Below are positions 17,173 to 59,551 of a stretch of 64,000 nt of DNA, in pieces. Source of the DNA: an uncultured Chloroflexia bacterium (GTDB taxonomy: Bacteria > Chloroflexota > Chloroflexia > QHBQ01 > JADMIH01); assembly GCA_963837315.1 (NCBI GenBank), contig CAWINE010000028.1:470462-534461 (forward strand). The letters run 5' to 3'. A program made the translations under genes and the position numbers. The notes under the pieces were generated by a model. It did not search any database, had not been told where the DNA came from, and saw only the letters and a list, made by a program, of their open reading frames with translations. The stretch's first letter is position 1; every line of letters starts with the position of its first letter.

Positions 17173-17255
17173 GCCTCCAGTCTAGGCAGCATGGTGTTGC
17201 CGGCACGTATGTGGTTTTCGATATCTTGACGATATGCGCCAGCTCGTATCATGTC
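17145..17255. promoter_or_regulatory. copy 1 of the duplicated bidirectional van control region (between vanH and murF)
   Basis: About 100 bp are near-identical to 20612-20715. The shared core is cctccagtct.gg..gc.tggtgttgccggcacgtatgtggttttcgatat...gacgatatgc. It includes CGATATCT / CGATATGC direct repeats 11 bp apart (17219-17237) and a TATCAT -10-like box. Confidence 0.7.
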
Positions 17256-23428: not shown

Positions 23429-25314
23429 ATGGCCGAAAACGATAATCCGATTTTACTCCCCTATCCGCGCTCGCTCACTCGCTCGGCTGGGCAGCATGTC
23501 TTACGGCCTCGCCGGCGCGTTATACTGGAAGGCGCTATGGCGCAGGAGCTAATGCCCGCCGGACGGCGACTGCAAGCCCAACTGGGCAAGTTGGCCGGTC
23601 TGGATTGGGAGATAGCCGCAACGCCGCTGGGCCCGGCCGAAGAGATCGGCGCGGTGTTGCGTCTGGCGCCGGGCACCGCCGACCACGAGCAGGGCTACAG
23701 GCTGACCATTTCGCCCGAGCAGATACTGATCGAGGCGCCGGAGCCGTCCGGAATTTTCTACGGTACCTGCACGCTGGTACAGCTTGTGGCACAATATGGC
23801 CGGACGCTGCCTGCCGTGCAGATAGCGGACCGGCCCGATTTTCCGGCCCGTGGGGTCATGCTAGACATCAGCCGCGACAAAGTGCCGCAGATGGACACGC
23901 TTTACAGCCTGGTCGATATGCTGGCCGGCTGGAAAATCAACCAGCTGCAGCTCTACACCGAGCACACCTTCGCCTATCGCCGGCACCCCGACGTCTGGGC
24001 CGAGGCTTCGCCGGTGACCGGCGACGAGATCCTGGCACTCGACGCCTTCTGCCGCGAGCGCTATATCGAGCTGGTGCCCAATCAGAACACCTTCGGCCAT
24101 ATGGAGCGCTGGCTGAACCATGCCCCGCTATGCGGTCGCTGGCCGAAACCCACGAAGAGTTTCGGTGCCATGGGGAGGTAAGATGCACGGGCCGTTCAGC
24201 CTCTGCCCGCTGCGATCCCGGCAGCCTGCAGCTCGTGCGCAGCCTGTTCGACGAGTTGCTGCCGCATTTCAGCAGCAAGCAGTTCAACGTCGGCTGCGAC
24301 GAAACCTTCGACCTGGGGCAGGGCCGCAGCAAGGACGAGTGCGAGCGTCGCGGCACCGAGCGCGTCTACCTCGACTATCTGCTACAGGTCCACAACGAAG
24401 TCGCGGAGCGCGGCTACACCATGCAGTTCTGGGGCGACATCATCGTGCAGCACCCCGACCTGGTCCCCGAGCTGCCCAGGGAAGCATCGCGCTGGAGTGG
24501 GGCTACGAGGCCGACCACCCGTTCGAGGAGCACGGCGAGCAGTTCGCCGCGCTCGGGCATCGCCTTCTACGTCTGCCCCGGCACCTCGTCCTGGTGCTCT
24601 ATCGCCGGGCGCACCGACAACGCCATCGGCAACCTGCGCAACGCCGCCGAGAGCGGGCTGAAGAACGGCGCCGTCGGCTATCTGAACACCGACTGGGGCG
24701 ACATGGGCCACTGGCAGGTGCTCCCGATCAGCTTCCTGGGCTTTGCTGCCGGTGCCGCCTACTCGTGGGCGCTCGAGGCAAACCGGACGATGGACGTGCC
24801 GGCTGTCGTTAGCCTGCATGCCTTCCGCGACCCGACCGGCGCCATGGGCCGCGTCGCCTACGACCTGGGCAACGTCTACAAGTCGGCAGGCGTCCTGATG
24901 CCCAACTCGTCCCTACTTTTCTGGACGTTGCAACGCGATTTCGCCCAGGAGATGGCGACGCGAACGGGCGGGACGGTCGATTACGCTTCCCCGCTCGCTG
25001 CCATAGACAAGGCCATGGCGCCCATCGCCACGGCGCGCATGCAGCGCCCCGACGCGGCCCTGATCCTTGCCGAGTTCGAGAACACCGCCCGTATGCTGCG
25101 CCACGCCTGCCGCCGCGGCCAGCTTATCTACGACGATAGGGAGCGCGCCGATCCGGCCGCCACCAAACAGGCGCTGGACGACGACCTCCGCGACATAATC
25201 TGCGAGTACGAGCGGATCTGGTTAGCGCGCAACCGGCCCGGTGGCCTGCGCGAGAGCGTCGGGCGTCTCCAGTCTGCTCGGCTCGACTACAGACCAGTGA
25301 CCGGTGACCAGTGA
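23429..25314 (+). pseudogene. GH20 beta-N-acetylhexosaminidase-like glycoside hydrolase, multiply frameshifted
   Basis: The N-terminal and catalytic barrel start is in ORF 23429-24181 (RPDFPARGVMLDISRDKVP...INQLQLYTEHTF...NQNTFGHMERW). The sequence then alternates between three frames (LAETHEEF; PWGGKMHGPFSLCP; CDPGSLQLVRSLFDELLPHFSSKQFNVGCDETFDLG; IALEWGYEADHPFEEHGEQFAA; GIAFYVCPGTSSW...). There are at least five frame changes between about 24125 and 24560. Confidence 0.75.
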
Positions 25315-25380
25315 CTAGGGACTAGGGGCTAGTGACCAGGCATGCGCGGTCACTAGCCCCTAGCCCCTAGTCACTGGTCA
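25305..25380. repeat. heptamer-arm hairpin (CCCCTAG / GTGACCA units) overlapping the GH20 stop
   Basis: tgaccagtgactagggactaggggctagtgacc (25305-25337) pairs with gtcactagcccctagcccctagtcactggtca (25349-25380). Confidence 0.85.
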
Positions 25381-30084: not shown

Positions 30085-31764
30085 CTATTCGCGGAATATA
30101 CTCCCCGCCACTTCCTCTGAACTCGCAGCTTCTTCGTACTGTATAGCTTCCTGATGGTTGTTACTGTAAGCTTTCACCGCTTTGACGAAATCGCGGAAGA
30201 GGGGGTGGGGGCGCGTGGGGCGGCTCTTCAGCTCGGGGTGGAACTGCGAGGCCACGAACCAGGGGTGGTTGCGTAGCTCGATGATCTCGACAAGCCTGCC
30301 GTCGGGCGAGAGGCCGGAGACGATCAGGCCCGCTTCGTGCATGCGCTCGCGGTAAGCGTTATTGAACTCGAAGCGATGGCGGTGGCGCTCGTAGACGACC
30401 GATTCGCCATAGGCCCTGGCGGCTTTGGTGCCCGGCACCAGGTTGCAAGGATAGAGGCCCAGGCGCATCGTGCCGCCCATGTCGGCGATGTCGCGCTGGT
30501 CGGGCATGATGTCGATCACGGGGTCCGAGCAGCGCTGGTCGATCTCGGTGGAGATGGCGTCCGGCAGGCCGAGCACGCTGCGGGCGAACTCGATCACCGC
30601 CATCTGCATCCCATAGCAGAGGCCCAGGTAGGGGATGTTGATGCTCGCGGGCGTATTGCGCGGCCAGGATCTTGCCGTGCACGCCCCGGTCGCCGAAGCC
30701 GCCCGGCACGAGGATGCCGTCCGACGCCCGTCAGCATCTCTTCGGGGTCGCCTTGCTCCAATGCCTCGGTGTTGACCCAGCGGATCTCGACTCTGGAGTT
30801 GTTGTACGCGCCGGCGTGCTGCAACGCCTCGGCCACGCTCAGATAGGCGTCGTGCAGCTCGGTATATTTGCCGCAGAGGGCGACTGTGACGGTCTCGCGA
30901 GCCTGGTCCATGCGCGCCACGGTCTGCTCGCCAGCCTGAGCAGGTCGGGCGCGTGGCCGCCCAGGTTCAGCTTCTCGACGATATATTCGCCCAGCCCGCG
31001 CGTCTTCGAGCAAGCAGCGGCACTTGGTAGATATTGGGCACGGTGGGCAAGGGGATCACCGCGCGCGGCTCCACGTCGCAGAAGATGGCGATCTTGGCGA
31101 TGATGTCTTCCTCTACCGGCGAATCGGAGCGGCAGAGGATAACGTCGGGGTTGATGCCGATAGAGCGCAGCTCTTTGACGCAGTGCTGGGTCGGCTTGGT
31201 CTTCAGCTCGCTGGTGGCGGCGATTTACGGCAGGAGGGTCAGGTGGATATAGAGGACGTTTTCGCGCCCGGCGTCGCGGCGCATCTGGCGGATGGCTTCG
31301 AGGAACGGCAGGCCCTCGATGTCGCCCACCGTGCCGCCGACTTCGACTATCACCACGTCGGGAGCGCCTGTGCGGGCCACGGCGGCGATGCGCGACTTGA
31401 TCTCGTTGGTGATATGGGGGATGACCTGGATGGTGCCGCCCAGGAAATCGCCGCGCCGCTCGCGCTCGATCACCGACCGGTAGATGCGGCCGGTGGTGAC
31501 GTTTGATGCCTGGGTGAGGTTTTCGTCAATGAAGCGCTCGTAGTGGCCCAGGTCGAGGTCGGTCTCCGCGCCATCGTCGGTCACGAATACCTCGCCGTGC
31601 TGGTAGGGCGACATGGTGCCGGGGTCGACATTGATATAGGGGTCAAGCTTCTGGAGAGAGACGGTGATGCCCCGGCTCTTCAGCACGCGCCCGATGGAGG
31701 CAACGGTGATACCCTTGCCCACGCTCGAGGCCACGCCGCCCGTCACGAATATGTACTTCGCCAT
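30085..31764 (-). pseudogene. pyrG: CTP synthase, one in-frame TAA plus about five frame changes
   Basis: The N-terminal synthetase domain is intact ([19 protein letters not shown] ... IHLTLLP). A TAA at 31225-31227 replaces the conserved Tyr of LVPY. Recognisable segments then fall in alternating frames: [27 protein letters not shown]..., [60 protein letters not shown], and [17 protein letters not shown]...[10 protein letters not shown]...FHPE. Confidence 0.85.
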
Positions 31765-31789
31765 CATTTCTCTCCCTCCTTTTGTCAAA

Positions 31790-31856
31790 ACACAAAACGT
31801 AAAACGTAAGGCATCAATGAAACCTTACGCTTTACGTCCTCCGTTTTACGTTTTCC
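31790..31856. repeat. heptamer-arm hairpin (AAACGTA units) upstream of pyrG
   Basis: acaaaacgtaaaacgtaaggc ... gccttacgctttacgtcctccgttttacgtttt. Confidence 0.75.
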
Positions 31857-34253: not shown

Positions 34254-34298
34254 GAGTGGTGGATGGGACGAGTTCGTGTCGCAAAACCCTTTCCCCTT

Positions 34299-34397
34299 GT
34301 CATTCCTCGCTTCGCTCGGAATCACTATGGGCAGCAGTATGCCTGGAATTCCAAGCGAATATCTCGCATAGTGATTCCGAGCGAAGCGAGGAATGAC
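34299..34397. repeat. perfect 31-bp inverted repeat with a 37-nt loop (MITE/REP-like)
   Basis: gtcattcctcgcttcgctcggaatcactatg (34299-34329) pairs with catagtgattccgagcgaagcgaggaatgac (34367-34397). The termini TTGTCATTCC resemble those at 59326-59466. Confidence 0.85.
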
Positions 34398-34473
34398 ACT
34401 TCTTATCTTGGTTGCTGTGCTTGCAACGATTTATAGGATGCACCACTAAGCGTGGCCGACTCCATCGACGAGT

Positions 34474-36247
34474 TCACCCCTCAAACGCCACCCGTACCAC
34501 TTTCGCCCGAATCTCTTCCTCCATCTCCGCAATCTCTCTTTTCAAGCGCTGAATCACCTCTTCGATCGCCACTATTGCTGTTTGAGTTGAATCTCGCCGC
34601 TTTAGCTCGGCCCCGCCCTGCGCCAGCGAGCGGTCGCCAAGTGTCAGCCGCAAAGGTATACCTATGAGGTCGGCGTCATTGAACTTGACGCCCGCCGAGC
34701 CTTCGCGGTCGTCGTAAAGCACCTCGATCCCGACCGCCTGCATATCGCTGTAGAGTTTCTCGGCTGCCATGCGCGCAGGCCCGTCATCCTTTGCTAGCGA
34801 AACGAGATGCACCTGGTAGGGCGCAATGGTGATAGGCCACACCAGCCCCCGCTCGTCGTTGTGCGCCTCGGCGACACAGGCCAGCAGCCGTCCAACCCCG
34901 ATTCCATAGGAGCCCATTATTATGCTCTTCTGCTTGCCATCGTTGTCCAGGTAGACGGCACCCAGTGCATCGCTGTATCGAGTGCCAAGCTTGAAGATGT
35001 TGCCTGCTTCTACTCCGCCCGAAAGGTGCAGAGGCGCAGCCGCAGCTCGGGCAAGCATCGCCCTCTTTGGCCGCGGCGATGTCCGCCACCAGGTCAGCTT
35101 TGTAGTCTCGCCCGTAATTCACGTTGATGTAGTGGTACCCGACCTCGTTGGCCCCGGCCACCAGGTTGGGCGACTGAGCCACGGCGTCGTCAACCACAAC
35201 CAGCGCATCTTTCACGCCGATGGGCGAGCCGTAGCCTGGCTGGGCACCTCTCGAAGTTATCTCCTCCTCCTGGGCAGGGCGCAGCTCCATGGCTTTCACG
35301 ACGTTCGCCAGCTTGGTCTCGTTCACGTCCATATCGCCGCGCACCACGGCGAACACGAATTGTTCCCTCTCGGTCTCGCCTTCTCGTAACTTCGCCACCA
35401 TGAACACCGCCTTGGCAGTCTTCGAGGCCGGGATATCGAGGAACCGGGCCAGGGCGTCAATGGTGGTCGACGCCAGGCGTGGCGACCTTCTCCATAGGCT
35501 TCGGCTCCTCTGTGCGGCGCGACCGGCTTGCGAAATAGTGCCACCTGCCTGTTGGCCGAATATCCGCAGTTGTCGCACAGCACCAGCGTATCTTCGCCGA
35601 TCGGGGTCAGGTACATGAACTCGTGCGCCAGGCTCCCGCCCATCATCCCGACATCCGACTTCACGGCGATCACCGGCAGGGCGCAGCGGTTGAAGATATT
35701 GAAATACGCCTGGTAATGCGCCCGGTACTGCTTATCGAGCCCTTCCAGATCGGCGTCCAGGCTGTAGCTATCGAGCATAGTGAACTCGCGGGCGCGTATC
35801 AGCCCGGCGCGCGGCCTGGGGTCGTCGCGCCACTTGGTCTGGATGTGGTAGATAAGCTGGGGCAATTGCCTGTACGATCTTATCTCTTTGCGGGCCAGGT
35901 CGGTCACGACCTCTTCGTGGGTCATCGCCAGCGCCATATCGCGCCCCGTTTTCTCCACAAAGCGCCCAAGCTCCGGCCCAATCGAGTACCAGCGTCCCGT
36001 CTCCTTCCAGAGATCGGCAGGGTGCACGACAGGCATAGTCATCTCCTGCCCGCCCAGCGCGTTGATCTCCTCGCGCATAATATTCTCGATCTTGGTCATC
36101 GAGCGCCTGGCCAAGGGGCAAATAGCTGAAAATGCCCGCCGCCAATTGCCTGACAAATCCCGCCCTCAACAGCAGCCTGTGGCTCGCCACCTCCGCCTCC
36201 GACGGCGCCTCGCGCAAGGTCTGGCTGAATAACTGGCTCATTCTCAT
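34474..36247 (-). pseudogene. proS: proline--tRNA ligase (bacterial type with INS editing domain), at least four frameshifts
   Basis: [46 protein letters not shown] runs from 36247. The sequence then passes through the frame of ORF 35323-36156 (motifs 1-2: ...[23 protein letters not shown]...), a short EEPKPMEKVATPGVD segment, the frame of ORF 34784-35578 (editing domain), and the frame of ORF 34474-35058 (GNIFKLGTRYS...MGSYGIGVGRLL...anticodon-binding domain). Confidence 0.85.
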
Positions 36248-36254
36248 TGGTTAC

Positions 36255-36520
36255 GTTTCTACTTCTTACTTCTTACTTCTTCAACGCCAAGACGCCAAGA
36301 CGCCAAGGTTTTTAACGGTTTGAACCACAAAGACACGAAGAGCACAAAGTTCACGAAGGGTATTATGGGTTTGAATTGCAGCGATCACGGAGTACTCAGA
36401 GATCACAGAGGATATTATGGTTCAACCCCCATAAATAATCTTGGCGAGCCTTGGCGTTCTTGGCGTCTTCGAAAAACCGTCGTCCGTCTACCGACAACTG
36501 ACAACTGACAACTGACAACT
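36255..36520. repeat. modular repeat array, reverse-complement homolog of 10060-10270, lying between the T-box terminator and the proS start
   Basis: On the minus strand it reads cagttgtcag x4, cgccaag units, ggttgaaccataata, CTCTGTGATCTCTGAG..., caattcaaacccataatac, CTTCGTG/CTTTGTG units, ggttcaaaccgttaaaaac, CTTGGCGT x3, and agtaaga x3. Confidence 0.85.
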
Positions 36521-36522
36521 GG

Positions 36523-36953: not shown

Positions 36954-37659
36954 ATGCTCTCCGACCAATCCGCAATCCGCAATCCGCAATCCGCAATCCA
37001 TATCGTTCCTTCAATCCTCTCAGCCGACTTCGCCCGGCTGGGCGAGCAGGTGCAGGAGGCTGTGAAGGCCGGGGCGGGGCGTATCCAGGTGGACGTCATG
37101 GACGGCCATTACGTGCCCAACATCACGGTCGGTCCGGTTGTGCTCGCTGCAATCCGCCCTTATTGCTCCGTGCCCATAGAGTGCCACTTGATGATCGAGC
37201 ACCCTGAGGCTTTTATCCATGATTTCGCCGAAGCGGGAGCCGACATCATCATCGTCCACGTCGAAACGGCTCCGCACCTGCACCGCGTTGTCCAGCAAAT
37301 CCGCGCCGAGGGCAAAGGCGTGGGGGTGGCTCTCGAATCCATCCACGCCGCTGGTGGACCTCGAAGAAATCCTGGAATATATCGATATGGCCCTCGTCAT
37401 GACCGTCAACCCCGGCTTCGGCGGGCAGGAATTCATCTATTCGATGCTGCCCAAAATCAGCCGCCTTCGCGCAACTATCCAGGAGCGCGGCCTCCACTGC
37501 GACATCGAAGTGGATGGCGGCATCCATGAAGGCACAATCCGCCAGGCAGTCCAGGCGGGCGCGAACCTGCTGGTCGCGGGGTCCGCCGTCTATGATGCGC
37601 CCGACGGTGTAGAAGCCGCGATGCAGCGGCTCCGCTCCGCTATAGAGGAACCCAAATGA
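36954..37659 (+). pseudogene. rpe: ribulose-phosphate 3-epimerase, one frameshift
   Basis: [40 protein letters not shown] and IIIVHVE are in ORF 36954-37529. [32 protein letters not shown]...DIEVDGGI...LVAGSAVY are in ORF 37219-37659. The junction is at about 37335. The N-terminus reads through (CCGCAAT)x4. Confidence 0.85.
36962..36999. repeat. (CCGCAAT)x4 run inside the annotated rpe 5' end
   Basis: ccgaccaatccgcaatccgcaatccgcaatccgcaatcc. Confidence 0.85.
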
Positions 37660-41476: not shown

Positions 41477-41479
41477 GAT

Positions 41480-41531
41480 CCATAAATGAAAAAGGCGATG
41501 AGAGGCCTCTCATCGCCTTTTTCATTTATGG
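41480..41531. terminator. perfect 26-bp-arm palindrome acting as a bidirectional terminator
   Basis: ccataaatgaaaaaggcgatgagagg pairs with cctctcatcgcctttttcatttatgg. It sits between the convergent FmdB-like and methyltransferase genes. Confidence 0.7.
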
Positions 41532-41536
41532 ACCAT

Positions 41537-44147: not shown

Positions 44148-44220
44148 GCGGGCGAGTGGTTAGTGGCCAGTGGCCAGTGGCTAGTCGTTCTAACCACTAA
44201 CCACTAACCACTCGTCCCGC
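44148..44220. repeat. heptamer-arm hairpin (GTGGCCA / GTGGTTA units) after gatB
   Basis: gcgggcgagtggttagtggccagtggccagtggctag pairs with ctaaccactaaccactaaccactcgtcccgc. Confidence 0.85.
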
Positions 44221-44265: not shown

Positions 44266-45525
44266 ATGCCGGAAACAATCGTCAAGCCTAATCCCTATCA
44301 CGTCGCGGTCGAGCAGTTTATGATCGCCGCCGACAAGCTGAACCTCGATGAGGGGATGAAGCAAATATTATCCAAGCCCAAGCGCGAGCTGACCGTGAAC
44401 TTCCCCGTCCGCATGGACGACGGTAGCTACAGGGTCTTCACGGGCTATCGCGTGCAGCACTCGCTCACCCGCGGCCCTGCAAAGGGCGGCATCCGCTATC
44501 ATCAGGACGTTTCTCTGGACGAAGTGCGCGCCCTCGCCATGTGGATGACATGGAAGTGCGCTACAGTGGGCATCCCCTATGGCGGAGCCAAGGGCGGCAT
44601 TATCGTTGACCCCAAGAAGCTCAGCCTCGCGGAGACCGAGCGGATGACCCGCCGCTTCGCCGCCGAAATCGCCCCGATCATCGGCCCCGAGGTCGACATC
44701 CCCGCTCCCGACGTGAACACCAACTCTCAGACGATGGCCTGGATCATGGACACTATCTCCATGATGCGCGGCTACCCGATCCCCGGCCTTATCACCGGCA
44801 AGCCAATCGCCCTCGAAGGCTCGCTCGGACGCAACGAAGCGACCGCACGCGGCCTCCAGTACGTTGTGCGCGAAGCCGCCAAGACCAAGAATATGAGCCT
44901 CCAGGGCGCTCGCGTGGTCGTGCAGGGTTATGGCAACGCAGGCGCGATCGCGGCCCGCCTCCTCGCAGAGGATGGCGCCATCATCATCGCGGTGTCTGAT
45001 AGCCGCGGCGGTATCTACAACTCCAAGGGCATTGATCCCAACGGCGCGCTCCGCTACAAGCAAGAGCACGGCACCCTCTCCGGTTTCGCCGGCTCGGACG
45101 ACATCAGCAACGAAGCCATCCTTGAGGTCGAGTGCGACATTCTTGTGCCCGCCGCCCTCGAAAGCGTTATCACAGGCCGCAACGCCGACCGTATCAAGAC
45201 CAAGATGATCGCTGAGGCCGCCAACGGCCCCACAGGCCCCGAAGCCGACCGCATCCTGCACGATAAGGGCATCATGGTCCTCCCCGACATCCTGGCCAAC
45301 GCCGGTGGTGTTACCGTCTCCTACTTCGAGTGGGCGCAGAACATCCAGGGCTATTACTGGGCCGAGGATGAGGTCAATGTGAAGCTTGAGCGCGTAATGA
45401 AGCGCTCCTTCCAGGACGTTTACGAGACGGCAACCAATAGCTCGGTCGACATGCGCACCGGTGCTTATATGCTGGCAATCTCCCGCGTCGCGGAAGTCAC
45501 CCGCTTGCGCGGCATCTTCCCGTAG
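44266..45525 (+). CDS. gdhA: Glu/Leu/Phe/Val dehydrogenase family, glutamate dehydrogenase
   Basis: 419 aa with GPAKGGIRYH, the catalytic Lys region IPYGGAKGGI, and the NAD(P) site VVQGYGNAGA. SD GAGGAG lies upstream. Confidence 0.88.
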   Translation: MPETIVKPNPYHVAVEQFMIAADKLNLDEGMKQILSKPKRELTVNFPVRMDDGSYRVFTGYRVQHSLTRGPAKGGIRYHQDVSLDEVRALAMWMTWKCATVGIPYGGAKGGIIVDPKKLSLAETERMTRRFAAEIAPIIGPEVDIPAPDVNTNSQTMAWIMDTISMMRGYPIPGLITGKPIALEGSLGRNEATARGLQYVVREAAKTKNMSLQGARVVVQGYGNAGAIAARLLAEDGAIIIAVSDSRGGIYNSKGIDPNGALRYKQEHGTLSGFAGSDDISNEAILEVECDILVPAALESVITGRNADRIKTKMIAEAANGPTGPEADRILHDKGIMVLPDILANAGGVTVSYFEWAQNIQGYYWAEDEVNVKLERVMKRSFQDVYETATNSSVDMRTGAYMLAISRVAEVTRLRGIFP

Positions 45526-45540
45526 TCCGGCTTTCGTTGA

Positions 45541-45583
45541 AGCATAAAAAATGGGACCGCTCAGCGGTCCCATTTTTTATGCT
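45541..45583. terminator. bidirectional hairpin terminator between gdh and the desaturase
   Basis: agcataaaaaatgggaccgc-tca-gcggtcccattttttatgct, with A and T runs on both sides. Confidence 0.75.
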
Positions 45584-46651
45584 TTAGCCTTCATGGGCAG
45601 CGACGAATTTGCGCCGCCGCAGAGGCGCTGAAGTTTCGTGCAGGCATTGCAATATCTCTACAAACGACTGGCGAACGCCTGTTACATGGTAGGAAACGTC
45701 ATGTTCGGCGCAGAAACGCCGGGTCATTTCGGCGGCGTCCCGAAGCTTGTTGCGGGGCATGCCTGGAAAGAGATGGTGGGCGGCCTGGTGGTTCAATCCA
45801 CCATAAAGGAAATCAATTAGGGGTGTGGAGCGGACGCTGCGGGCGGTGAGCACCTGCTTGCGCAAGAAGTCCATCTGCTCGTCATCTTCGCCCACCACGA
45901 GCATACCTTTGTGGTTGGGAGCGAATACTGCCCCTATGAACAGCCCCAGCAGCCCTCGGTGCACCAAAATGAAGGTCAATCCGAGCCACGGCCCGAGCAG
46001 CAAAGGTAAACCCACGTAATAGAGGACGAAGTGCGCCCAGAGCATAGCAGTATCGGGTAGGTGCCACCTGTAGCGCTTGCGGATCATAAAGATGACCGAT
46101 GAAATCTGCATGCTGTAGGTGGTGAAGGTGAGCGCCGGGAAGAAGAGGTAAGCCTGGTAAGCGGTGAAAATACGCGCCAACCCGGTCTTGCGCAAAGCCT
46201 GCTCTTCAGAGAATGCCATAAAAGGGATCGTTATGTCGGGGTCCATCCCATCGTGGTTGGGGTTGGCGTGGTGGGCGTTATGCTTGTCGTTCCACCAGCC
46301 AAGACTCATCCCCACCAGCAGATTGGCCATCAGCATGCCCACCCAGTTGTTCACGCGGCTTGAGCTGAACACCTGCTTATGGCCGAAATCGTGTGCCAGA
46401 AAGCCCAACTGAGCGCACACAAAGGCCAGGTACGGCGCAACCAGCAAGCGCAGCCAGCCGTCCAGCAGGAAGAGCACAACCACCCCGGCAGCGAACAGGC
46501 CCAATGTATAGGCCATCTTGATTCCGTAATATCTGCCCTGTGGGTTGAGCAGCCCGGCATCTCTGACGCGGGCTTTCAACGCCCCGTAAAGATTCTTGTT
46601 TATCGACGTGGAATCTTGCGCGCGCCTACCTTGTAATTCGATTGCAGCCAT
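45584..46651 (-). CDS. membrane fatty-acid (acyl-lipid/acyl-CoA) desaturase
   Basis: 355 aa with three His boxes (HDFGH, HNAHHANPN, QAAHHLFP) and predicted TM segments between them. Confidence 0.85.
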   Translation of the reverse strand: MAAIELQGRRAQDSTSINKNLYGALKARVRDAGLLNPQGRYYGIKMAYTLGLFAAGVVVLFLLDGWLRLLVAPYLAFVCAQLGFLAHDFGHKQVFSSSRVNNWVGMLMANLLVGMSLGWWNDKHNAHHANPNHDGMDPDITIPFMAFSEEQALRKTGLARIFTAYQAYLFFPALTFTTYSMQISSVIFMIRKRYRWHLPDTAMLWAHFVLYYVGLPLLLGPWLGLTFILVHRGLLGLFIGAVFAPNHKGMLVVGEDDEQMDFLRKQVLTARSVRSTPLIDFLYGGLNHQAAHHLFPGMPRNKLRDAAEMTRRFCAEHDVSYHVTGVRQSFVEILQCLHETSAPLRRRKFVAAHEG

Positions 46652-46933: not shown

Positions 46934-47015
46934 TAGGGGCAGACCCACGTGTCTGCCCTGCTCGGATAGAGAATTCTGCAACCCCGCCAGGGCAGACACG
47001 TGGGTCTGCCCCTAG
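46934..47015. repeat. inverted repeat of a 27-bp GC-rich element (TAGGGGCAGACCCACGTGTCTGCCCTG)
   Basis: The arm 46934-46960 has its exact reverse complement at 46988-47015. Each arm is itself a near-palindrome around CACGTG. Confidence 0.85.
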
Positions 47016-47232
47016 ACCTTTAATCTGAACGCATACTGGAACGACACAACAGGGCGGATGCAACGTCGAGAACCTGCTCAGAATGACAAGGGCGTAGGAC
47101 GAAGGACGGAGATGGCGCTCCAGGCACCGACTTTGCATCACCCTGCAAGTGACAGGGGCAGGGCAGATCTATCCGGCGTGCGGCGCTATGATATAATCTC
47201 CTTTACCACCTACAACGATGAGGAGGCCACCC

Positions 47233-48496
47233 GTGGCAGCAGAGCAGGCAGAGAAACCTAATCCTTATCAGGTCGCGGTCGAGCAGTTTATGATCGCCGC
47301 CGACAAGCTCCACCTCGATGAGGGGATGAAGCAGATATTGTCAAAGCCCAAGCGCGAGCTGACCGTGAACTTCCCCGTCCGCATGGACGACGGAAGCTAT
47401 AAGGTCTACACAGGCTATCGCGTGCAGCACTCGCTCACCCGCGGCCCCGCAAAGGGCGGCATCCGCTATCATCAGGACGTTTCTCTGGACGAGGTGCGCG
47501 CCCTCGCCATGTGGATGACATGGAAGTGCGCCACGGTTGGTATTCCCTATGGCGGGGGCAAAGGCGGCGTCATCGTAGACCCGCGTCAGCTAAGCCAGAA
47601 CGAGCTGGAGCGCCTCACCCGCCGCTTTGCCACCGAAATCTCTCCTATCATCGGCCCTGAGATAGACATCCCGGCTCCCGACGTGAACACCAATGCCCAG
47701 ACGATGGCCTGGATCATGGACACTATCTCCATGATCCGCGGCTACCCGATCCCCGGCCTCATCACCGGCAAGCCCATCCCGATCAAAGGCTCTCTTGGCC
47801 GTACCGAGGCCACCGCTCGCGGTCTGCAATATGTCGTGCGCGAGGCAGTCAAGGCGAAAGGCATGAGCCTGCAAGGCGCTCGCGTGGTCGTGCAGGGCTT
47901 CGGCAACGTCGGCGGCAACTCGGCCCGCCTCCTCGCTGAAGACGGAGCTGTCATCATCGGCGTCTCCGATGTATACGGTGCTCTCTACTCTTCCAAAGGC
48001 ATCGACCCTGACGCCGCCACCGACTACGCCCTCAAGAACGGTCGCCTGACCGATTTCCCGGGCACCGAGCCTATCACCAACGCCGAGCTACTCGAGCTTG
48101 AATGCGATATCCTTGTGCCCGCCGCGCTGGAAAGCCAGATTACCGGCCAGAACGCAGGCCGTATCAAGGCCAAAATGATAGCCGAAGGCGCGAACGGCCC
48201 CACAACGCCCGAAGCCGACCTTGTGCTTTACGACAAAGGCGATCATGGTCGTCCCCGACATCCTCGCCAACGCAGGCGGTGTTACCGTCTCCTACTTCGA
48301 GTGGGCGCAGAACATCCAGGGCTATTACTGGGCTGAGGATGAGGTCAACGACAAGCTGGAGCGCGTAATGAAGCAGTCCTTCAACGACGTTTACGACATA
48401 GCCACCAGCCGCAAGGTGGACATGCGCATAGGCGCTTACATGCTTGCGATCTCCCGCGTCGCCGAGGTCACGCGGTTGCGCGGCATTTTCCCGTAA
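47233..48496 (+). pseudogene. glutamate dehydrogenase paralog, one frameshift
   Basis: GTG 47233 lies 6 nt after GAGGAGG. The product is about 90% identical by eye to 44266-45525 in the first ~300 nt. The body is ORF 47218-48336. The C-terminus ([23 protein letters not shown]...RLRGIFP) is in ORF 48221-48496. The junction is at about 48240. Confidence 0.8.
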
Positions 48497-48508: not shown

Positions 48509-48572
48509 CCGGTGCCCAACAAAAGAAAGATGGAGCGCATCAGCGCTCCATCTTTCTTTTGTTGGGCACCGG
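48509..48572. terminator. perfect 30-bp-stem hairpin, bidirectional terminator
   Basis: ccggtgcccaacaaaagaaagatggagcgc-atca-gcgctccatctttcttttgttgggcaccgg. Confidence 0.7.
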
Positions 48573-48902: not shown

Positions 48903-48974
48903 ATCGTGCCTCCTGATCTAGTGATTTACCTTCCAGGTCGCTGTGCAACTTCTACTAACCAATTAAAGATTGGA

Positions 48975-49255
48975 TGGTTTTGGGGACACCCCAAGCCCCG
49001 GCAGGGAGATCCCTGCACCCCCTTTTGTCGCCAACTTGTTAGTAATGGAGGTATTTTGGGGACACCCCAAGCCCCGGCAGGGAGCCCCTGCACCCCCTCT
49101 CCACGATAGCCTGTTAGAGAATAGAGGGAGTATTGGGGACACCCCAAGCCCCGGCAGGGGAGCGCCCCTGCACTGCTTCTTCACCATGGCCTGTTAGAGA
49201 ACAAGAGATACTGGGGACGCCCAAGCCCTGGCAGGGACCTCCAGGCACCCCTTCC
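48975..49255. repeat. array of four GGGGACACCCC...CAGGG-N-CCCTG...CACCCC elements (period ~75-78 bp)
   Basis: Copies lie at about 48982-49022, 49056-49096, 49134-49177 and 49213-49250 (the last degenerate). The family and orientation match 6339-6530. Confidence 0.85.
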
Positions 49256-50396: not shown

Positions 50397-50469
50397 GTAC
50401 CGTTAGCAACAATAAGAGCAAAGGGGCCGCGCAGACGACCCCTTTGCTCTTATTGTTGCTAACGGTACG
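50397..50469. terminator. perfect 30-bp-stem hairpin (12-nt loop)
   Basis: ggtaccgttagcaacaataagagcaaagggg-ccgcgcagacga-cccctttgctcttattgttgctaacggtac. It lies downstream of the propeller gene and upstream of the disordered-protein genes. Confidence 0.65.
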
Positions 50470-52444: not shown

Positions 52445-52481
52445 CCCGGCCCGCCAAACACATTGTGTTTGGCGGGCCGGG
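52445..52481. terminator. GC-rich hairpin downstream of the spondin_N-like gene
   Basis: cccggcccgccaaacac-att-gtgtttggcgggccggg. Confidence 0.55.
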
Positions 52482-54340: not shown

Positions 54341-54379
54341 GGAGATAGGGGATGGGGGAGATAGGGGAGATACGGGGAG
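54341..54379. repeat. GGAGATAGG-type short tandem run
   Basis: ggagataggggatgggggagataggggagatacggggag. Confidence 0.6.
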
Positions 54380-54609: not shown

Positions 54610-56631
54610 ATGGACCAGCATCCTGACGGCTCGACGCCCGTGAACGGCATGGAGCGCCTCCTCGCGGGCCGCTACCTCCTCCGCGACAAAATCGGAGAGG
54701 GTGGGGCTGCCGTGGTCTACCGCGCCCTCGACCAGCGTCTCGACCGCGTGGTCGCCATCAAGCTCCTTCGTCCCCAGTTCACCACTGACGAAGCTTCGCG
54801 CAAACGCTTCCTCAACGAGGCGCGCACAGCGGCGGGCCTCAACCACCCCAATGTGGTTGACATCTACGATTTTGGAGAGAACCCCGACGGCTCGATGTTC
54901 ATTGCCATGCAATACATCGAAGGCCAGAACCTGAAGGACTTCCTCCACCGCCGGGGCCGCCTGTCGCCCGCTGACGTGGTCGCAATTATCCCGCAAGTGT
55001 GCCAGGCCCTTACTGCCGCCCACTCACGCGGTCTCATCCATCGTGACGTGAAGCCCCAGAATATCATGATCGATAACAAGGGCAATGTTCACCTCACCGA
55101 TTTCGGCATCGTCAAAGCCCTTTCCGGACCTGAGCTTACCCAAACAGGCATGACCTTCGGCACAGCCGCCTATCTTTCCCCGGAGCAGGCAACCGGGGAG
55201 CCCATCGGCCCGGCATCCGACGTGTACGCTCTCGGCTGCGTGATGTACGAAATGCTTACCGGCTCGCCCCCTTTCACGGGCGACAACCCCGCAGTAGTAG
55301 CATATAAGCAGGTGTGGGACCAACCGCGCCCTCTCCACGAGTGGGCGCCGGAAGCGCCGCCCGCTCTCGAAAGCATTATCATGCGGTGTCTGAACAAAGA
55401 CCCCGCGCGCCGGTACCCAAGCGCGGCCGCACTCGGCACGGATCTGACCAACCTGGGCTCTGCCTTCAACCAGCCTACCCAGGCCGTCAGTCTTGGCTCT
55501 CTCGCTGCCCAGGGCAAGGGAGCTACCCCGCCCCGCGACGCCAGGCCCAGCGCCGAGATGTCCCGGCCCATACCGATGCCGGCTTCACCCTCGTCTACCA
55601 CCGTCCCGCCCGTCAGGGTCCAGACCACCAATCTGACCGGCGGCCAGGTGACGCGCCGGGTCGATCCGCCGCGCTCAGGCACACCTCTCCCGCCCCGCGT
55701 TCAGGTGGTCAATCCTGGCAGCCGGGTCAGCAATGCGTGGCTCCCTGTGGCTCTGGTGGCAGTAATCCTGGGGGTGCTGGTTTGCGCCCTCGCTGCATCG
55801 CAAGGCAATCTCCTCAGTATCCTCGGCAGCAGCTCCACACCCACCCCGCCCCCTGGCGTCACAACCGCCACGCCGGTCCCACCAACTCCAACCCTTGCAC
55901 CTATCGTAGTGGTTACGGCCACGAACACTCTTATCCCTGCTGCTACGGATACGCCCGTGCCCGAAACCACTGCGACTGACACTGATACACCGGTGCCTCC
56001 TACCGACACGCCGCTACCCACTATACCCACCCCTCCCACAGTAACACCCGAGGTATCTCCAACCGACACCCTTGGAGCCGGGGAGGCCACTTTTATCCCA
56101 TCTCAGCCAACCATCGCTCCGCCGCTCACCTTCCAGCCTTTCAACACTCCTACGCTGCCTCCGATAATCCTTTTCACACCGGTTCCTTCGGGATCTAACT
56201 CGGTAACCATAAGTGCGCTCTCTTTCCAGGGGGGGTTCACGAACCCGGGAGGCTACCACCTGCGCAATCCTCAGTGGGTATATGGCCAGGGCACCCAGTA
56301 CCACACCATGAGCGCCTCATTCGCTATCAGCGACAAGCCCAAAGGCCCTGCTGATCTTGCGGTTGTGGGCGTCAACTCCGAAGATGCTCCCAAATGCCAC
56401 CTGCGCGTGCTCGTCAACGACCAGGTAGTTTTCGACGGCTCCGATCCTCTCCCCAATGACAATACGGATGGCCCGCAAGCCCCAGGCAACTGGGGCACGG
56501 CCCACTTCCGCATAGGTCCCAATATTCTTCAGCAAGGGAACAATACGGTCACTTTCATCAACCTCGACCCCAGCGACAAAATCAATTATCCCATCTTCAT
56601 AATGATCAACTCCGTCACTCTTACATGGTAA
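54610..56631 (+). CDS. Ser/Thr protein kinase with a TM helix, Pro/Thr-rich linker and an extracellular C-terminal domain
   Basis: 673 aa with Hanks motifs GEGGAAVVY, VAIK, HRDVKPQNIM, DFG and SPEQ. The TM segment is WLPVALVAVILGVLVCALA, followed by a PT-rich region and a ~170-aa C-terminal domain. Confidence 0.88.
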   Translation: MDQHPDGSTPVNGMERLLAGRYLLRDKIGEGGAAVVYRALDQRLDRVVAIKLLRPQFTTDEASRKRFLNEARTAAGLNHPNVVDIYDFGENPDGSMFIAMQYIEGQNLKDFLHRRGRLSPADVVAIIPQVCQALTAAHSRGLIHRDVKPQNIMIDNKGNVHLTDFGIVKALSGPELTQTGMTFGTAAYLSPEQATGEPIGPASDVYALGCVMYEMLTGSPPFTGDNPAVVAYKQVWDQPRPLHEWAPEAPPALESIIMRCLNKDPARRYPSAAALGTDLTNLGSAFNQPTQAVSLGSLAAQGKGATPPRDARPSAEMSRPIPMPASPSSTTVPPVRVQTTNLTGGQVTRRVDPPRSGTPLPPRVQVVNPGSRVSNAWLPVALVAVILGVLVCALAASQGNLLSILGSSSTPTPPPGVTTATPVPPTPTLAPIVVVTATNTLIPAATDTPVPETTATDTDTPVPPTDTPLPTIPTPPTVTPEVSPTDTLGAGEATFIPSQPTIAPPLTFQPFNTPTLPPIILFTPVPSGSNSVTISALSFQGGFTNPGGYHLRNPQWVYGQGTQYHTMSASFAISDKPKGPADLAVVGVNSEDAPKCHLRVLVNDQVVFDGSDPLPNDNTDGPQAPGNWGTAHFRIGPNILQQGNNTVTFINLDPSDKINYPIFIMINSVTLTW

Positions 56632-56666
56632 AAAGAAATCCCCGCCGCGGCGGGGATTTCTTTTTA
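56630..56666. terminator. bidirectional terminator between the kinase and trkA
   Basis: aaaaagaaatccccgcc-gc-ggcggggatttcttttt. Confidence 0.75.
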
Positions 56667-56687: not shown

Positions 56688-57347
56688 CTAGCTGCCGGTC
56701 ATCATCTGCCGGAACTTGTCCTCGCTCTCTTTGTTCGCGAGGGCTATCACTTCGTCCTCCGGTTTGAGGAGCGTATCGCCCTTGGGCAGGATCATGCTCC
56801 CGTCGCGTATCACTGCCGAAATAATTACGGTGCTCGGGAAGTTGATCTCAGCCAGCGTCTTGTTCGCTACAGGCGCGCCCTCTTCCACGGTGGCTTCCAC
56901 GATAGCGATCTGAGCGTGCTTTAGTGTCATCAAATGCACCAGCCCGCGCTCCGGTATCTCCTGCTCGATAACACTCAGAATAATATTGGTGGCCGACACG
57001 GTCACATCGATGCCAAGCTTCCTGAATATCTCTTCATTCTTGGGATTATTCACGCGGGCAATCGTGCGCGGCACGTTGAATAGCCTTTTGGCAGTCTGGC
57101 ACACCACCAGGTTATCCTCGTCGTCACCTGTCACAGCCACCACCACGTCGGCCCGCGCCGCACCTGCCGCCTCCAGGGTTGCAAGCTCCGCTCCATCTCC
57201 TTCTACCACTACAGAACCGAAGCGCTCGCCGTAAGTAGCAACCTTCCTGGGGTTCTTCTCGATAAGCAATATCTCGAACCCCTCGTTCACCAGTGTCTTG
57301 GTGAGGTAATACCCCACCTTCCCGCCGCCCACGACCAGTATGTACAT
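56688..57347 (-). CDS. trkA: Trk/Ktr potassium-uptake system NAD-binding component (TrkA-N plus TrkA-C)
   Basis: 219 aa with MYILVVGGGKVGYYL (Rossmann) and a C-terminal RCK_C region (HAQIAIVEATVEEGAPVANKTL). Confidence 0.8.
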   Translation of the reverse strand: MYILVVGGGKVGYYLTKTLVNEGFEILLIEKNPRKVATYGERFGSVVVEGDGAELATLEAAGAARADVVVAVTGDDEDNLVVCQTAKRLFNVPRTIARVNNPKNEEIFRKLGIDVTVSATNIILSVIEQEIPERGLVHLMTLKHAQIAIVEATVEEGAPVANKTLAEINFPSTVIISAVIRDGSMILPKGDTLLKPEDEVIALANKESEDKFRQMMTGS

Positions 57348-57356: not shown

Positions 57357-57413
57357 CTAGGGGCTAGGGGCTGGGGGCTAGTAGGTTTCTAGCCCCCAGC
57401 CCCTAGCCCCTAG
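57357..57413. repeat. heptamer-arm hairpin (GGGGCTA / TAGCCCC units) between the two trkA-type genes
   Basis: ctaggggctaggggctgggggctag-taggttt-ctagcccccagcccctagcccctag. Confidence 0.85.
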
Positions 57414-57423: not shown

Positions 57424-57999
57424 TCAACTATTCCTGTTGAACAATCCCCTTATGCCCTTACCGTTTTGCTCGGTCCTATGCTCGGGGTGGCCCGGCACGT
57501 CTATATGGTTGGGGTGGCTTGCAAGGGGTCCTGTCGGGTTGCGACCCTCGCTTATCTGCGTGCCTATAGGCACCGTGTTGGTGGGCCTGGGCTGCTCGGC
57601 CAGAGAGTTCAGTATATCGCGGGCCGTGGTTGACACCAGCGTAGTAGGGCATATCGTCTCCAGCCCGAGCTCGTGGTAGAGGCTTTCGCGCCCAGGGTCA
57701 TAAATACGCGCCAGCACGTGCGGCACGCCGAATATCTCTTTAGCTATCTGGGAGGCCATGATGTTGGTATTGTCATAGTTGGTGACAGCCGCGAACGAGT
57801 CGGCCCCTTCTATACCCGCAGCCTTCAGCACATCGGCGTCTATGCCTGTGCCGAGCACTGTGTTCCCTTTGAAGGTCTCAGGAAGCCGGTCGAATGCCTC
57901 TTGATTCGAATCGATTATGCTGATCTCGTTCCCCTCTGCTTCCATAAGCTGTGCCAGCCGCGCACCTACGCGCCCACAGCCAAGAATTACTACTTTCAT
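57424..57999 (-). CDS. TrkA-N (RCK N-terminal) domain protein
   Basis: 191 aa with MKVVILGCGRVGARLAQ and an RCK_N fold. There is a Pro/His-rich tail and no RCK_C. Confidence 0.75.
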   Translation of the reverse strand: MKVVILGCGRVGARLAQLMEAEGNEISIIDSNQEAFDRLPETFKGNTVLGTGIDADVLKAAGIEGADSFAAVTNYDNTNIMASQIAKEIFGVPHVLARIYDPGRESLYHELGLETICPTTLVSTTARDILNSLAEQPRPTNTVPIGTQISEGRNPTGPLASHPNHIDVPGHPEHRTEQNGKGIRGLFNRNS

Positions 58000-58011: not shown

Positions 58012-58095
58012 AAGTTGTCAGTTGTCAGTAGACGCTTATGCTCGGTCGTCGGTCGTCCTTCGTCTACTGACAACTGACAACTGACAACTGACAAC
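58012..58095. repeat. heptamer-arm hairpin (GTTGTCA / TGACAAC units)
   Basis: agttgtcagttgtcagtagacg ... cgtctactgacaactgacaactgacaactgacaact. The heptamer is the same as at 9090-9236 and 36491-36520. Confidence 0.85.
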
Positions 58096-58100
58096 TCCGT

Positions 58101-58871: not shown

Positions 58872-58925
58872 TGGAATGCCCCGCGGCTGTTATTCCGCAT
58901 TCCGCATTCCGCATTCCGCAATTCG
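58872..58925. repeat. (CATTCCG)x4 heptamer run with a short complementary arm
   Basis: ggaatgccccgcggctgttattccgcattccgcattccgcattccgcaattcg. The unit is the same as in the purH hairpin arms. Confidence 0.75.
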
Positions 58926-59551
58926 ATGCCGGTGCCGGTGGAATAAGCGTATATAAGCTCCGCTCCCGCCGAGTGAAGGTGAGAGCCATGCTTCGCCATC
59001 ATGGAGTATAGAACTCCAACCGGCAGGTTGATGCTAATCTTCATACACTATGGGGCATAAAAGCCTGAGCCAGGCAATTATCTTTCAAAACTACCCTTCA
59101 TGCCGTGCCGAGCGATGCCCCGGTAACTCGGCCTTCTTTCCCCAGGCATGTCTTGTGCAACCGCCGAACCATGCCTGAATACCTTTCCTGATCCCTCTCG
59201 AACATTTATATCACAAGTTTATATTATAGCACTCGAATGTGGAAATCGCAACCGACTTACACACAATCCACAGGGCCAACTCATCCAAAATGAGCATGAT
59301 GCTGGGGCAAAGGGATGCTCTCTCCTTTGTCATTCCGAGTAATCATGACCCTGCGGGCCATCATCGCCAATGAAAATGAAGGAGTATTGGGGACAGCACT
59401 ATGCTCGGCATTGTTAGCCATTCTTGCACCCGGTATTCCTCAGCTGCACTAGCGAGGAATGACAAACTAGGCTTCGTGCCTCCTTCACATCTTTCCCAAT
59501 TTAGATGACTTTGCCCTGGCACCATCCAGGCTCTCCAAAGCTGTTGCAACG

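Follow-up and report, generated by a model that had tools for sequence, protein, structure and literature searches.

The heptamer hairpin in the trkA-trkA spacer

We analyzed a 64,000-nucleotide (nt) stretch of contig CAWINE010000028.1 from an uncultured Chloroflexia bacterium, referred to below as the window, in which the element under study is a hairpin whose arms are tandem copies of a 7-nt unit. It lies between two trkA-like genes:

57357–57413, minus strand: hairpin (CTAGGGG)3.6, 7-nt loop, (CCCCTAG)3.6, recognized by arm complementarity and by its fold (z −8.6)

The letters of this segment are CTAGGGGCTAGGGGCTGGGGGCTAG / TAGGTTT / CTAGCCCCCAGCCCCTAGCCCCTAG, and its units are laid out as CTAGGGG CTAGGGG CTGGGGG CTAG / TAGGTTT / CTAG CCCCCAG CCCCTAG CCCCTAG. 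The arms are 25 nt each, 7 nt apart and 100% complementary. The hairpin occupies the whole spacer of the trkA-like genes at 57424–57999 and 56688–57347, both on the minus strand: it begins 10 nt past the upstream stop codon, the start codon lies 9 nt downstream of it, and the Shine-Dalgarno sequence AGGAG overlaps its final bases. All hairpin z-scores given here were obtained by RNA folding of the transcribed strand and comparison with 200 shuffles per locus. For this hairpin the predicted energy was −60.8 kcal/mol against −31.0 ± 3.5 kcal/mol in the shuffles, none of which equaled it (0/200). The window has 58.9% G+C, and its TrkA homologs at 74–82% identity are named as Chloroflexota or Chloroflexia metagenome-assembled genomes.

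Census of heptamer arrays

Exact periodic runs, defined as at least two units plus two bases, were counted in the window and in 50 dinucleotide-preserving shuffles of it. Period-7 runs of at least 16 nt numbered 23, compared with a mean of 0.14 and a maximum of 1 in the shuffles, which bears out the view of the initial annotation, made from the letters of the window, that such runs are not a product of base composition. Period 6 was mildly enriched (9 runs vs. 1.0) and period 4 stood at background (14 vs. 14.0); the corresponding counts were 7 vs. 4.2 for period 5, 1 vs. 0.06 for period 8 and 2 vs. 0.02 for period 9, and there were no exact runs of periods 10–15. Tandem Repeats Finder returned 59 rows for the window, about 30 of them of period 7. 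A mismatch-tolerant scan found 30 period-7 arrays, 14 of which had a reverse-complement partner within 150 nt. The excess of arrays is real and far above chance.

Eight of the loci are heptamer-armed hairpins (8476, 9090, 10934, 25305, 31790, 44148, 57357 and 58012), with z-scores from −4.9 to −10.4 and no shuffle as good at any of them (0/200 each). About nine further period-7 arrays have one arm only. Because roughly half of the arrays are one-armed, the heptamer array is the primary feature and the hairpin a secondary one. The initial annotation had counted at least twelve loci of a single hairpin design; the census gives eight hairpins and about nine one-armed arrays. Its list of two-armed loci was right for eight of nine, the ninth (58872–58925) being a one-armed (ATTCCGC)4 array with a z-score of −1.5, and the run that it placed at 54341–54379 has a period of 9 and not of 7. 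At least a dozen distinct heptamer units are present in the 64 kb. Some recur at several loci, namely AGTTGTC at 9090, 36493 and 58012, CTAGGGG at 25305 and 57357, and AATCCGC at five sites.

The density of period-7 runs is 3.6 per 10 kb in the window, compared with 0.32 per 10 kb in 80 distant purH loci taken from relatives at 43–51% identity among the matches listed (best 49–50%). Nearer relatives were available as two syntenic contigs of a close relative (L081 and L084, DNA 84–92% identical to the window) and as the more distant contigs L082, L085, L086, L087 and L088. The close relative matches the window in heptamer richness. L087 and L088 have seven period-7 runs each and none of periods 5, 6, 8 or 9, and no period-7 runs were found in L085 and L086 (66% G+C).

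Evidence for copying between the arms

The arms are 100% complementary over 32 nt at 10934 and over 25 nt at 57357, while units within one arm match each other at only 88–90%. At 10934 the variant units of the left arm (GAATGCG GAATGGG GAATTCG GAATTCG GAAT) return in mirror order in the right arm (ATTC CGAATTC CGAATTC CCCATTC CGCATTC), such that 32 of 32 positions are paired. Because independent slippage in the two arms would lose this mirror order of variants, we infer that one arm was copied from the other at the DNA level. The stems are also nearly pure Watson-Crick helices (0–3 G-U pairs) with near-equal energies on the two strands. The exception is the hairpin at 31790, which has five G-U pairs and a folding energy of −31.4 kcal/mol on the transcribed strand but of only −16.7 kcal/mol on the opposite one. 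Mirrored variants, Watson-Crick stems and the unit swaps in both arms seen in a relative (below) together favor generation at the DNA level, and in this respect the proposal of the initial annotation, slippage combined with template copying, has held up.

Orthologous spacers in relatives

In the trkA-trkA spacer the window reads (CTAGGGG)3-CTAG-AAACCTA-(CCCCTAG)3, and L084 reads TCAGGGG TGAGGGG TCAGGGG CTAG-AAACCAGAGC-(TGACCCC)4. The site, its flanks and the loop core are common to the two genomes and the unit has changed in both arms. L085 and L086 carry an unrelated, GC-rich, non-repeat hairpin in the same spacer (z −3.6). At the end of purN the pair GAGTTAT/ATAACTC of the window is replaced by GAGTTCT/AGAACTC in L081, with flanks about 95% identical. 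In the usp-trkA and Roadblock spacers the close relative has retained the AGTTGTC/GACAACT arms, and the interiors differ. The hairpin at 25292–25380 is exchanged in L081 for an unrelated, unstructured segment of similar length; the site is not an empty one. Taken together, these comparisons show hairpins that are generally kept in place but change rapidly in sequence, with some exchange between loci.

Placement of hairpins and arrays

The remaining hairpins and the one-armed arrays of the window are as follows, the latter being listed without a strand except where one is given.

8476–8518, plus strand: hairpin GAGTTAT GAGTTAT ... ATAACTC, z −5.9; the purN stop codon (8490–8492) lies inside the left arm, and the Roadblock/LC7 start (8533) 14 nt past the stem

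9088–9236, plus strand: composite hairpin with outer arms (AGTTGTC)3 / (GACAACT)3 and a 57-nt interior, z −9.5; between the Roadblock/LC7 gene and a downstream 191-aa gene (start 9247)

10931–11015, plus strand: hairpin in purH with a 32-bp perfect stem of units GGAATGC / GGAATGG / GGAATTC, −63.3 kcal/mol, z −9.8

25292–25380, plus strand: hairpin with units GACCAGT / GACTAGG / CTAGGGG in mirrored order, z −10.4; in the spacer between a 569-aa open reading frame (ORF) and an aminotransferase gene, with the stop codon of the upstream ORF inside the left arm

31790–31856, minus strand: degenerate hairpin of AAAACGT units just upstream of a pyrG N-terminal fragment, z −7.05

44148–44220, plus strand: hairpin whose left arm has GTGGTTA and GTGGCCA units and whose right arm is (TAACCAC)3, z −7.4; gatB-gdh (glutamate dehydrogenase) spacer

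58012–58096, minus strand: hairpin (AGTTGTC)n ... (GACAACT)n with a 26-nt interior containing (TCGGTCG)2, z −4.9; usp-trkA spacer, 4 nt beyond the usp stop codon and with AGGAG directly after the stem

4465–4484: one-armed array (GATTGCG)2.9, beginning at the stop codon of a DHDPS-family gene; conserved in L081

4541–4570: one-armed array (TAAGCAG)4.3, running into the Shine-Dalgarno sequence of a Fer2_4 gene (TTG start at 4580); kept in L081 with fewer copies

7794–7882: three AATCCGC arrays in the purM-purN spacer; about 70 nt of the region are missing from L081

12986–13014: one-armed array (CTGACCC)4 between divergent genes; CTGACCC is also the right-arm unit of the orthologous trkA hairpin in L084

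36260–36281: one-armed array (TACTTCT)3.1, followed by (ACGCCAAG)3 at 36284–36307

36493–36521: one-armed array (GACAACT)4.1, preceded by CGTCGTC CGTCTAC; these graded units recur before an array at 58066 (93% identity over 43 nt)

36966–36999, plus strand: array (CAATCCG)4.9 in a ribulose-phosphate 3-epimerase (rpe) ORF, after the ATG (36954) and ahead of the first conserved residue

37855–37873: one-armed array (CAATCCG)2.7, from the tandem-repeat scans

58892–58920: one-armed array (ATTCCGC)4.1, folding no better than shuffles (z −1.5)

By Pfam annotation, six of the eight hairpins (8476, 9090, 25305, 44148, 57357 and 58012) lie in spacers of same-strand genes. These spacers are filled by them: a hairpin begins anywhere from 23 nt ahead of the end of the upstream stop codon to 12 nt past it and finishes 9–45 nt short of the next start, with a Shine-Dalgarno sequence following directly in five of seven cases. 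All of the hairpins except that in purH are intergenic, and each of the intergenic ones has stop codons in at least two frames, whereas the purH hairpin is stop-free in two of its three sense frames. ORFs hold only short two-copy runs and two arrays, in purH and at the rpe N-terminus. The array at 36966 is apparently translated as an N-terminal extension of the rpe ORF, which would make it a second heptamer array in coding sequence. The description of the initial annotation, a palindromic period-7 design with several different units placed at gene ends and in operon spacers, is accurate for these loci; it fails at 10934–11015, which is in frame within purH.

None of the heptamer hairpins is followed by a T-tail, and a terminator scan called none of them. 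The end of the usp-trkA-trkA operon is marked by a classical palindrome with an A-run, stem and T-run at 56629–56666. Rfam covariance models gave no matches at gathering thresholds over the whole window, a tRNA scan found none, and no direct repeats resembling target-site duplications flank any of the eight hairpins.

Other palindromes of the window are not built of heptamers. Two more, at 41479–41532 and 45540–45584, have A and T runs and are terminator-like. Further ones are located at 48509–48572, 50397–50468, 46934–47014, 34298–34398 and 52445–52481. All of these non-heptamer palindromes, that at 56629–56666 included, are long and perfect or nearly so, with arms of 18–33 nt, and most stand at gene ends. 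In several the stem is preceded by an A-run and followed by a T-run, as in bidirectional terminators. Long perfect palindromes are thus widespread in this genome.

The heptamer array site inside purH

The hairpin at 10931–11015 is in frame within purH (10339–11997) and encodes a linker insert of about 28 residues (GMRNGEFGIRNKDQPGSIPNSEFPIPHS). The insert sits where the IMP cyclohydrolase and AICAR transformylase domains meet, in a segment that is missing from Mycobacterium tuberculosis PurH. Alignment of 32 PurH sequences showed that every member of the clade at 70–92% identity has a hypervariable insert here, about 10–55 residues long, and that four more distant homologs have none. PurH lengths differ even within single 90% clusters.

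The DNA of the insert is degenerate in L081 and L082. In L087 it consists of two non-complementary heptamer arrays, (AGGAGTC)3 and (ATTCAAA)n, and in L088 of another such pair, (CGGACGA)4.7 and (AATCCAA)4.4. Several of the inserts of the clade are translated heptamer arrays (e.g., TQNSKLKTQNF). A hairpin is not a constant occupant of the site, and we rejected that idea on the grounds that the inserts of the relatives are not hairpins. The purH linker is a hot spot for heptamer arrays across the clade, and the perfect hairpin of the window represents a young state of it.

Just upstream of purH, the segment 10092–10216 contains repeats of 34 and 51 nt (AACCCATAAAAACCTTCGTGATCTTCGTG...), within which a 9-nt repeat, CTTCGTGAT, occurs four times.

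Other repeats and gene features of the window

The 8-nt motif ACGCCAAG (reverse complement CTTGGCGT) is tandemly repeated or recurs at three unlinked intergenic positions, 36284–36307, 4499–4530 and 10234–10249, each adjoining heptamer arrays. A second dispersed repeat consists of tandem units of about 66–77 nt with the core TTTTGGGGACACCCCAAGCCCCGGCAGGGGAGCGCCCCTGC, at 6323–6518, 48962–49236 and 59378–59410. Its unit holds two short palindromes, GGGGACACCCC and GCAGGGG..CCCCTGC, and there are three copies upstream of purM, 3.3 at 48981–49236 and one near 59378.

Two glutamate dehydrogenase genes (44284–45524 and 47254–48495) are about 3 kb apart, share 86–93% DNA identity, and look like a recent tandem-like duplication; the second is truncated. 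A 70-nt segment occurs at 17168–17237 and 20632–20701 with 90% identity, upstream of a 2-hydroxyacid dehydrogenase and of a D-Ala-D-Ala ligase region, and may be a shared regulatory region.

Several conserved genes are split or truncated into separate ORFs, including pyrG (31225–31788 and 30085–30609), a class II aminoacyl-tRNA synthetase (35323–36156 and 34474–35058), rpe (36954–37529), a gdh copy (47218–48336) and a histidine kinase (21508–22284). This suggests either indel frameshifts in the assembly or real pseudogenes. The repeat findings are left intact by it, because the repeats recur in independent assemblies.

CTAGGGG hairpins in metagenomes and the polarity of the arms

A scan of metagenomes with the pattern (CTAGGGG)2-N5-35-(CCCCTAG)2 retrieved 39 contigs (L089–L127), mostly from soil and with 52–71% G+C. 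They contained 32 distinct CTAGGGG hairpins with a median stem of 25 bp and 22 mismatches in 838 stem positions, and the variants TTAGGGG, CTAGGGA and TTGGGGG were mirrored between the arms. Over the 186 kb of matched contigs there were 108 period-7 runs, compared with 18, 29, 7 and 4 for periods 5, 6, 8 and 9. No genes were common to the metagenomic hairpin contigs and the window. One of the contigs is from Chloroflexota, as judged by its RtcA, and in the two contigs that were checked (L110 and L123) the hairpin was again between same-strand ORFs. Scans of viral contigs with either order of the arms gave no match.

Many of the metagenomic hairpins, among them those of L098, L110, L113 and L117, share a loop-free central palindrome, GGGAAGAGCGCTCTTCCC, which hints at a sequence-conserved sub-family in other soil Chloroflexota. 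A candidate for a common interior motif, CGCTTCGCTC, was not enriched (11 matches vs. 8.2 expected). The initial annotation had described these elements as defined by architecture rather than by sequence. The units do differ from locus to locus, and in that sense the description is apt. It has to be tempered for the units themselves, which form sequence families found again over loci and genomes, within the window and in the 32 distinct hairpins from soil.

Among the heptamer hairpins that were not selected by the query, the 5′ arm had G>C in 22 and C>G in 3. When two query-selected cases and four hairpins orthologous to window loci were left out, the G-rich arm was 5′ in 16 of 19 independent hairpins (two-sided binomial, about 0.004 by our own arithmetic). 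The count over all retrieved loci, 41:0, is biased by the choice of loci. Because a structure of the form X-loop-rc(X), where rc(X) is the reverse complement of X, reads identically on both strands, the G-first order is intrinsic to the hairpin and independent of the direction of transcription. It might, as a hypothesis, avoid exposing a Rho loading site on a C-rich arm that emerges first.

Comparison with known heptanucleotide repeats

In many bacteria no long simple repeat is as strongly over-represented as the heptanucleotide kind, and slippage of the polymerase over a 7-nt contact has been proposed as the cause (Mrazek 2007, quoted in PMC4679880 and PMC4692102). Of about 185 GGGAATC arrays in Xanthomonas campestris and X. 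axonopodis, 70–75 form convergent inverted pairs (Rehm et al. 2015, PMC4692102). Those arrays are mostly between aligned ORFs, at most 50 bp from a stop codon or the next ORF, and are seldom found within coding sequence or between divergent genes; sister species carry them at the same intergenic sites, with extensive variation in length and sequence (PMC4692102). The window agrees with them in the 7-nt unit, the range from two to many copies, the G-rich-first inverted pairs capable of stem-loops, the placement in spacers and the turnover. Same-unit arrays on opposite strands converge, and they are near a stop codon and the next start. The differences are that Xanthomonas, a gammaproteobacterium, has essentially one unit family, chosen for its G-quadruplex potential, whereas the Chloroflexota host of the window has at least a dozen units, many of them incapable of forming a G-quadruplex, and also a hairpin translated within an essential gene. 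A G-quadruplex-capable unit with at least four G-tracts was not found: the arm at 57357 has three G-tracts only, and most units (AGTTGTC, GAGTTAT, AAAACGT) have none.

The short tandemly repeated repetitive (STRR) sequences of cyanobacteria comprise several 7-bp units per genome, each in many dispersed intergenic copies (Mazel et al. 1990; Jackman and Mulligan 1995; as summarized in PMC2670836). In filamentous cyanobacteria, STRR hairpins lie between co-transcribed genes (hupS-hupL, nif) in intergenic regions that are variable yet structured among close relatives, and roles in transcript stability, translational coupling or termination have been proposed for them (PMC2670836). The window is alike in having several 7-bp units, dispersed intergenic arrays, hairpins between co-transcribed genes and variation between relatives. 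Its arrays are head-to-tail 7-nt copies, over-represented, dispersed and mainly intergenic, as in the broader class of STRR and long simple sequence repeats (SSRs); a strict use of the term STRR would call for a cyanobacterial host and for STRR1–3 units, and the window has neither. They lie at one to three mismatches from what we take to be the STRR1–3 units. A cyanobacterial origin of the window was rejected, there being four highly iterated palindrome (HIP1) sites in 64 kb and homologs in Chloroflexota and Chloroflexia.

Direct repeats of TAACTGA in 2–6 copies, a few nt upstream of start codons, have been described in Beggiatoaceae, cyanobacteria and Bacteroidetes (MacGregor 2015, PMC4679880), and in “Maribeggiatoa” 1 of 170 sets is an indirect repeat (PMC4679880). 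The (GACAACT)n arrays of the window can be read as (CAACTGA)n, one base off TAACTGA, with the same placement and orientation, a resemblance that is close to chance. Nearly all of the “Maribeggiatoa” sets are direct repeats, whereas (GACAACT)n in the window is mostly in hairpins. Geobacter metallireducens also has heptanucleotide families (PMC2700814). Resemblance between units was not used as evidence of homology, being only marginally beyond random (p about 0.03); the match is one of kind.

Several other classes of element were compared. Repetitive extragenic palindromic (REP) sequences and REPINs have a conserved palindrome of 20–40 bp, a GTAG or CGTC tag and associated RAYT transposases, and are thought to stabilize mRNA or modulate operon expression. 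They resemble the window's elements as dispersed extragenic palindromes in operon spacers and are the source of the functional analogy adopted below, and they differ in that the arms here are tandem heptamers of many sequences with no common tag; no RAYT was found among the approximately 56 ORFs of the window. MITEs, the miniature transposable elements with inverted repeats, do not fit, since there are no flanking direct repeats and the relative's site at 25292 holds an unrelated segment and is not empty. The GC-rich stem plus U-tract of a Rho-independent terminator was likewise not found. Rickettsia palindromic elements (RPEs) are sequence-conserved, 100–150 bp long and tolerated in frame in protein genes. 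The purH insert is similar to these, and to the tandem repeats in the ORFs of Borgs, in that in-frame repeat DNA adds a probably disordered peptide. The unit lengths of the Borg repeats in ORFs are multiples of three (PMC9879509), unlike the unit of the purH hairpin, which is not a triplet and whose total length happens to preserve the frame.

Interpretation

We consider it probable that the elements are heptamer arrays of the STRR or long-SSR type, produced by slippage and copying from arm to arm, and retained as intercistronic mRNA stem-loops. The arrays are hyper-abundant in this soil Chloroflexota lineage, about half of them as convergent inverted pairs with the G-rich array first. Under this explanation, arrays would grow, shrink and homogenize through replication slippage in 7-nt steps. 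A second arm would be made, and kept identical, by DNA-level copying such as snap-back synthesis, intramolecular template switching or conversion templated by the hairpin. The types of unit would be drawn from a limited genome-wide repertoire, and one could replace another at a locus. Hairpins would then be kept chiefly at sites that benefit from a strong stem-loop or can bear one, namely the spacers of co-transcribed genes between stop codon and ribosome-binding site. There they most likely act as REP-like or STRR-like mRNA structures, with an influence on the stability of segments, on processing or on translational coupling, and not as terminators. Stop-free hairpins could also be maintained in frame where a protein linker tolerates them, as in purH.

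The slippage and arm-copying steps are supported by the sequence comparisons. An intercistronic mRNA role is the most likely function, judging from the placement of the hairpins, from retention at the trkA site of a hairpin in three lineages with three sequences, and from the strand-specific hairpin at 31790. The initial annotation had not recognized a described class; the cyanobacterial STRR sequences (PMC2670836) and the inverted heptamer pairs of Xanthomonas (PMC4692102) show that the class is already described, and the novelty lies in the host lineage, in how varied the units are, in the clear cases of their concerted replacement and in the in-frame purH hot spot. The dedicated enzyme that it suggested found no counterpart, in that there was no transposase or nuclease among the approximately 56 window ORFs scanned.

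Several observations weigh against this explanation. The hairpin at 44148 folds better on the non-transcribed strand. Three spacers were folded from relatives without the heptamer hairpin, and two of them had no significant structure; selection for a stem-loop is for that reason not general. A non-heptamer segment of 23 nt (GATGAGCGAAGCGAACTATTGTC) in the interior of the usp-trkA hairpin of L084 recurs as its reverse complement at window positions 9167–9189, and such sharing of interior segments between unlinked loci looks more like inter-locus copying or mobility than simple in-situ mutation. The replacement of the whole spacer at 25292–25380 is likewise not easily explained by simple in-situ mutation and has the same look of copying between loci or mobility. 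The G-first order and the exclusive period of 7 are not predicted by slippage plus snap-back alone. Rival explanations involving mobility, binding sites or polar synthesis would account better for spacer replacement, shared interiors and G-first polarity.

Non-autonomous mobile elements of the REPIN or MITE kind are one such rival, with each unit family a lineage copied by a transposase encoded elsewhere in the genome and elements replaced at orthologous sites. The recurrence of the AGTTGTC, CTAGGGG and AATCCGC families at unlinked loci would be expected of them, as would the graded units that precede two AGTTGTC arrays (93% over 43 nt), the inverted 23-nt segment shared with L084, the wholesale replacement of the 25292 hairpin in L081 and the central palindrome GGGAAGAGCGCTCTTCCC common to metagenomic hairpins. 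Target-site duplications are nevertheless absent at all eight hairpins, no termini are conserved across families, the number of unit copies is free to vary, every second array has only one arm, the approximately 56 window ORFs yielded no transposase or Y1/RAYT-like domain, and viral contigs gave no matches. At the trkA site the loop core is kept while the units differ, which fits in-situ change better than re-insertion, and on balance we regard mobility as unlikely. We give somewhat less credence still to arrays of binding sites for a sequence-specific nucleic-acid-binding protein such as a translational regulator, for which the hairpins would be a by-product or a means of masking sites. The 3′ arms and several one-armed arrays do stop 9–14 nt short of start codons, reaching into the Shine-Dalgarno sequence (4541, 8476, 9090, 57357 and 58012), (GACAACT)n is one base off the TAACTGA repeats proposed as sites of the S1/Csp/CsrA type (PMC4679880), and the units are slightly nearer to described units than random heptamers are (p about 0.03). 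That resemblance is near chance once rotations and both strands are allowed (random mean 2.24 vs. observed 1.86). A dozen or more units in 64 kb, swapped at orthologous sites, would be hard for one specific binder, perfect palindromy would hide single-stranded sites, and arrays also lie past stop codons, between divergent genes and inside coding sequence.

A dedicated polar activity of DNA synthesis or repair, which would write arrays at 3′ ends and produce palindromes when ends join, in place of passive slippage, was considered because of the exclusive period of 7, the strand-symmetric G-first polarity and the similar units in unrelated phyla; we hold it to be very unlikely. The specific form in which G-rich heptamers are templated onto 3′ ends at breaks or stalled forks by a telomerase-like enzyme, a reverse transcriptase or a primase-polymerase, with joined ends giving the convergent pair, seems to us more doubtful again. 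The period, the similar units in distant phyla, the G-rich array pointing toward the center in 16 of 19 independent hairpins and in all described Xanthomonas pairs, and the likeness of CTAGGGG, TTAGGGG and TTAGGGA to telomere repeats all speak for it. No candidate enzyme was seen among the approximately 56 window ORFs scanned, many units are not G-rich (AGTTGTC, GAGTTAT, AAAACGT), the graded variants CGTCGTC, CGTCTAC, CGACAAC and TGACAAC suit mutation and slippage better, and selection acting on the RNA could give rise to the polarity just as well. Ordinary intrinsic terminators or artefacts of assembly are the least credible of these explanations and were rejected. Strong GC-containing stems do stand at gene ends, and several genes are split by apparent assembly indel errors. 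No T-tract follows any heptamer hairpin, though, the hairpins lie inside operons directly before ribosome-binding sites, genuine A/T-run palindromes are found elsewhere (41479–41532, 45540–45584 and 56629–56666), and the same arrays are present in independent Joint Genome Institute (JGI) assemblies of relatives and in the 39 metagenome contigs.

Implications

Heptanucleotide repeats have been known in bacteria since 1990. The lineage studied here extends their phylogenetic range to soil Chloroflexota, and the purH locus indicates that a palindrome of −63 kcal/mol can sit in frame inside an essential gene. Should a dedicated polar activity exist after all, heptamer-rich and heptamer-poor sisters among the soil Chloroflexota would be a place to find the responsible gene. 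The organism is uncultured, and the practical value of the locus is as a comparative data set. It amounts to a natural experiment, in which genomes that are 84–92% identical keep a spacer hairpin yet swap its unit in both arms, and a heptamer-free relative has an unrelated hairpin at one such site. These unit-swapping relatives imply that one arm is copied from the other at the DNA level and that the stem-loop itself is retained at a minimum of one site.

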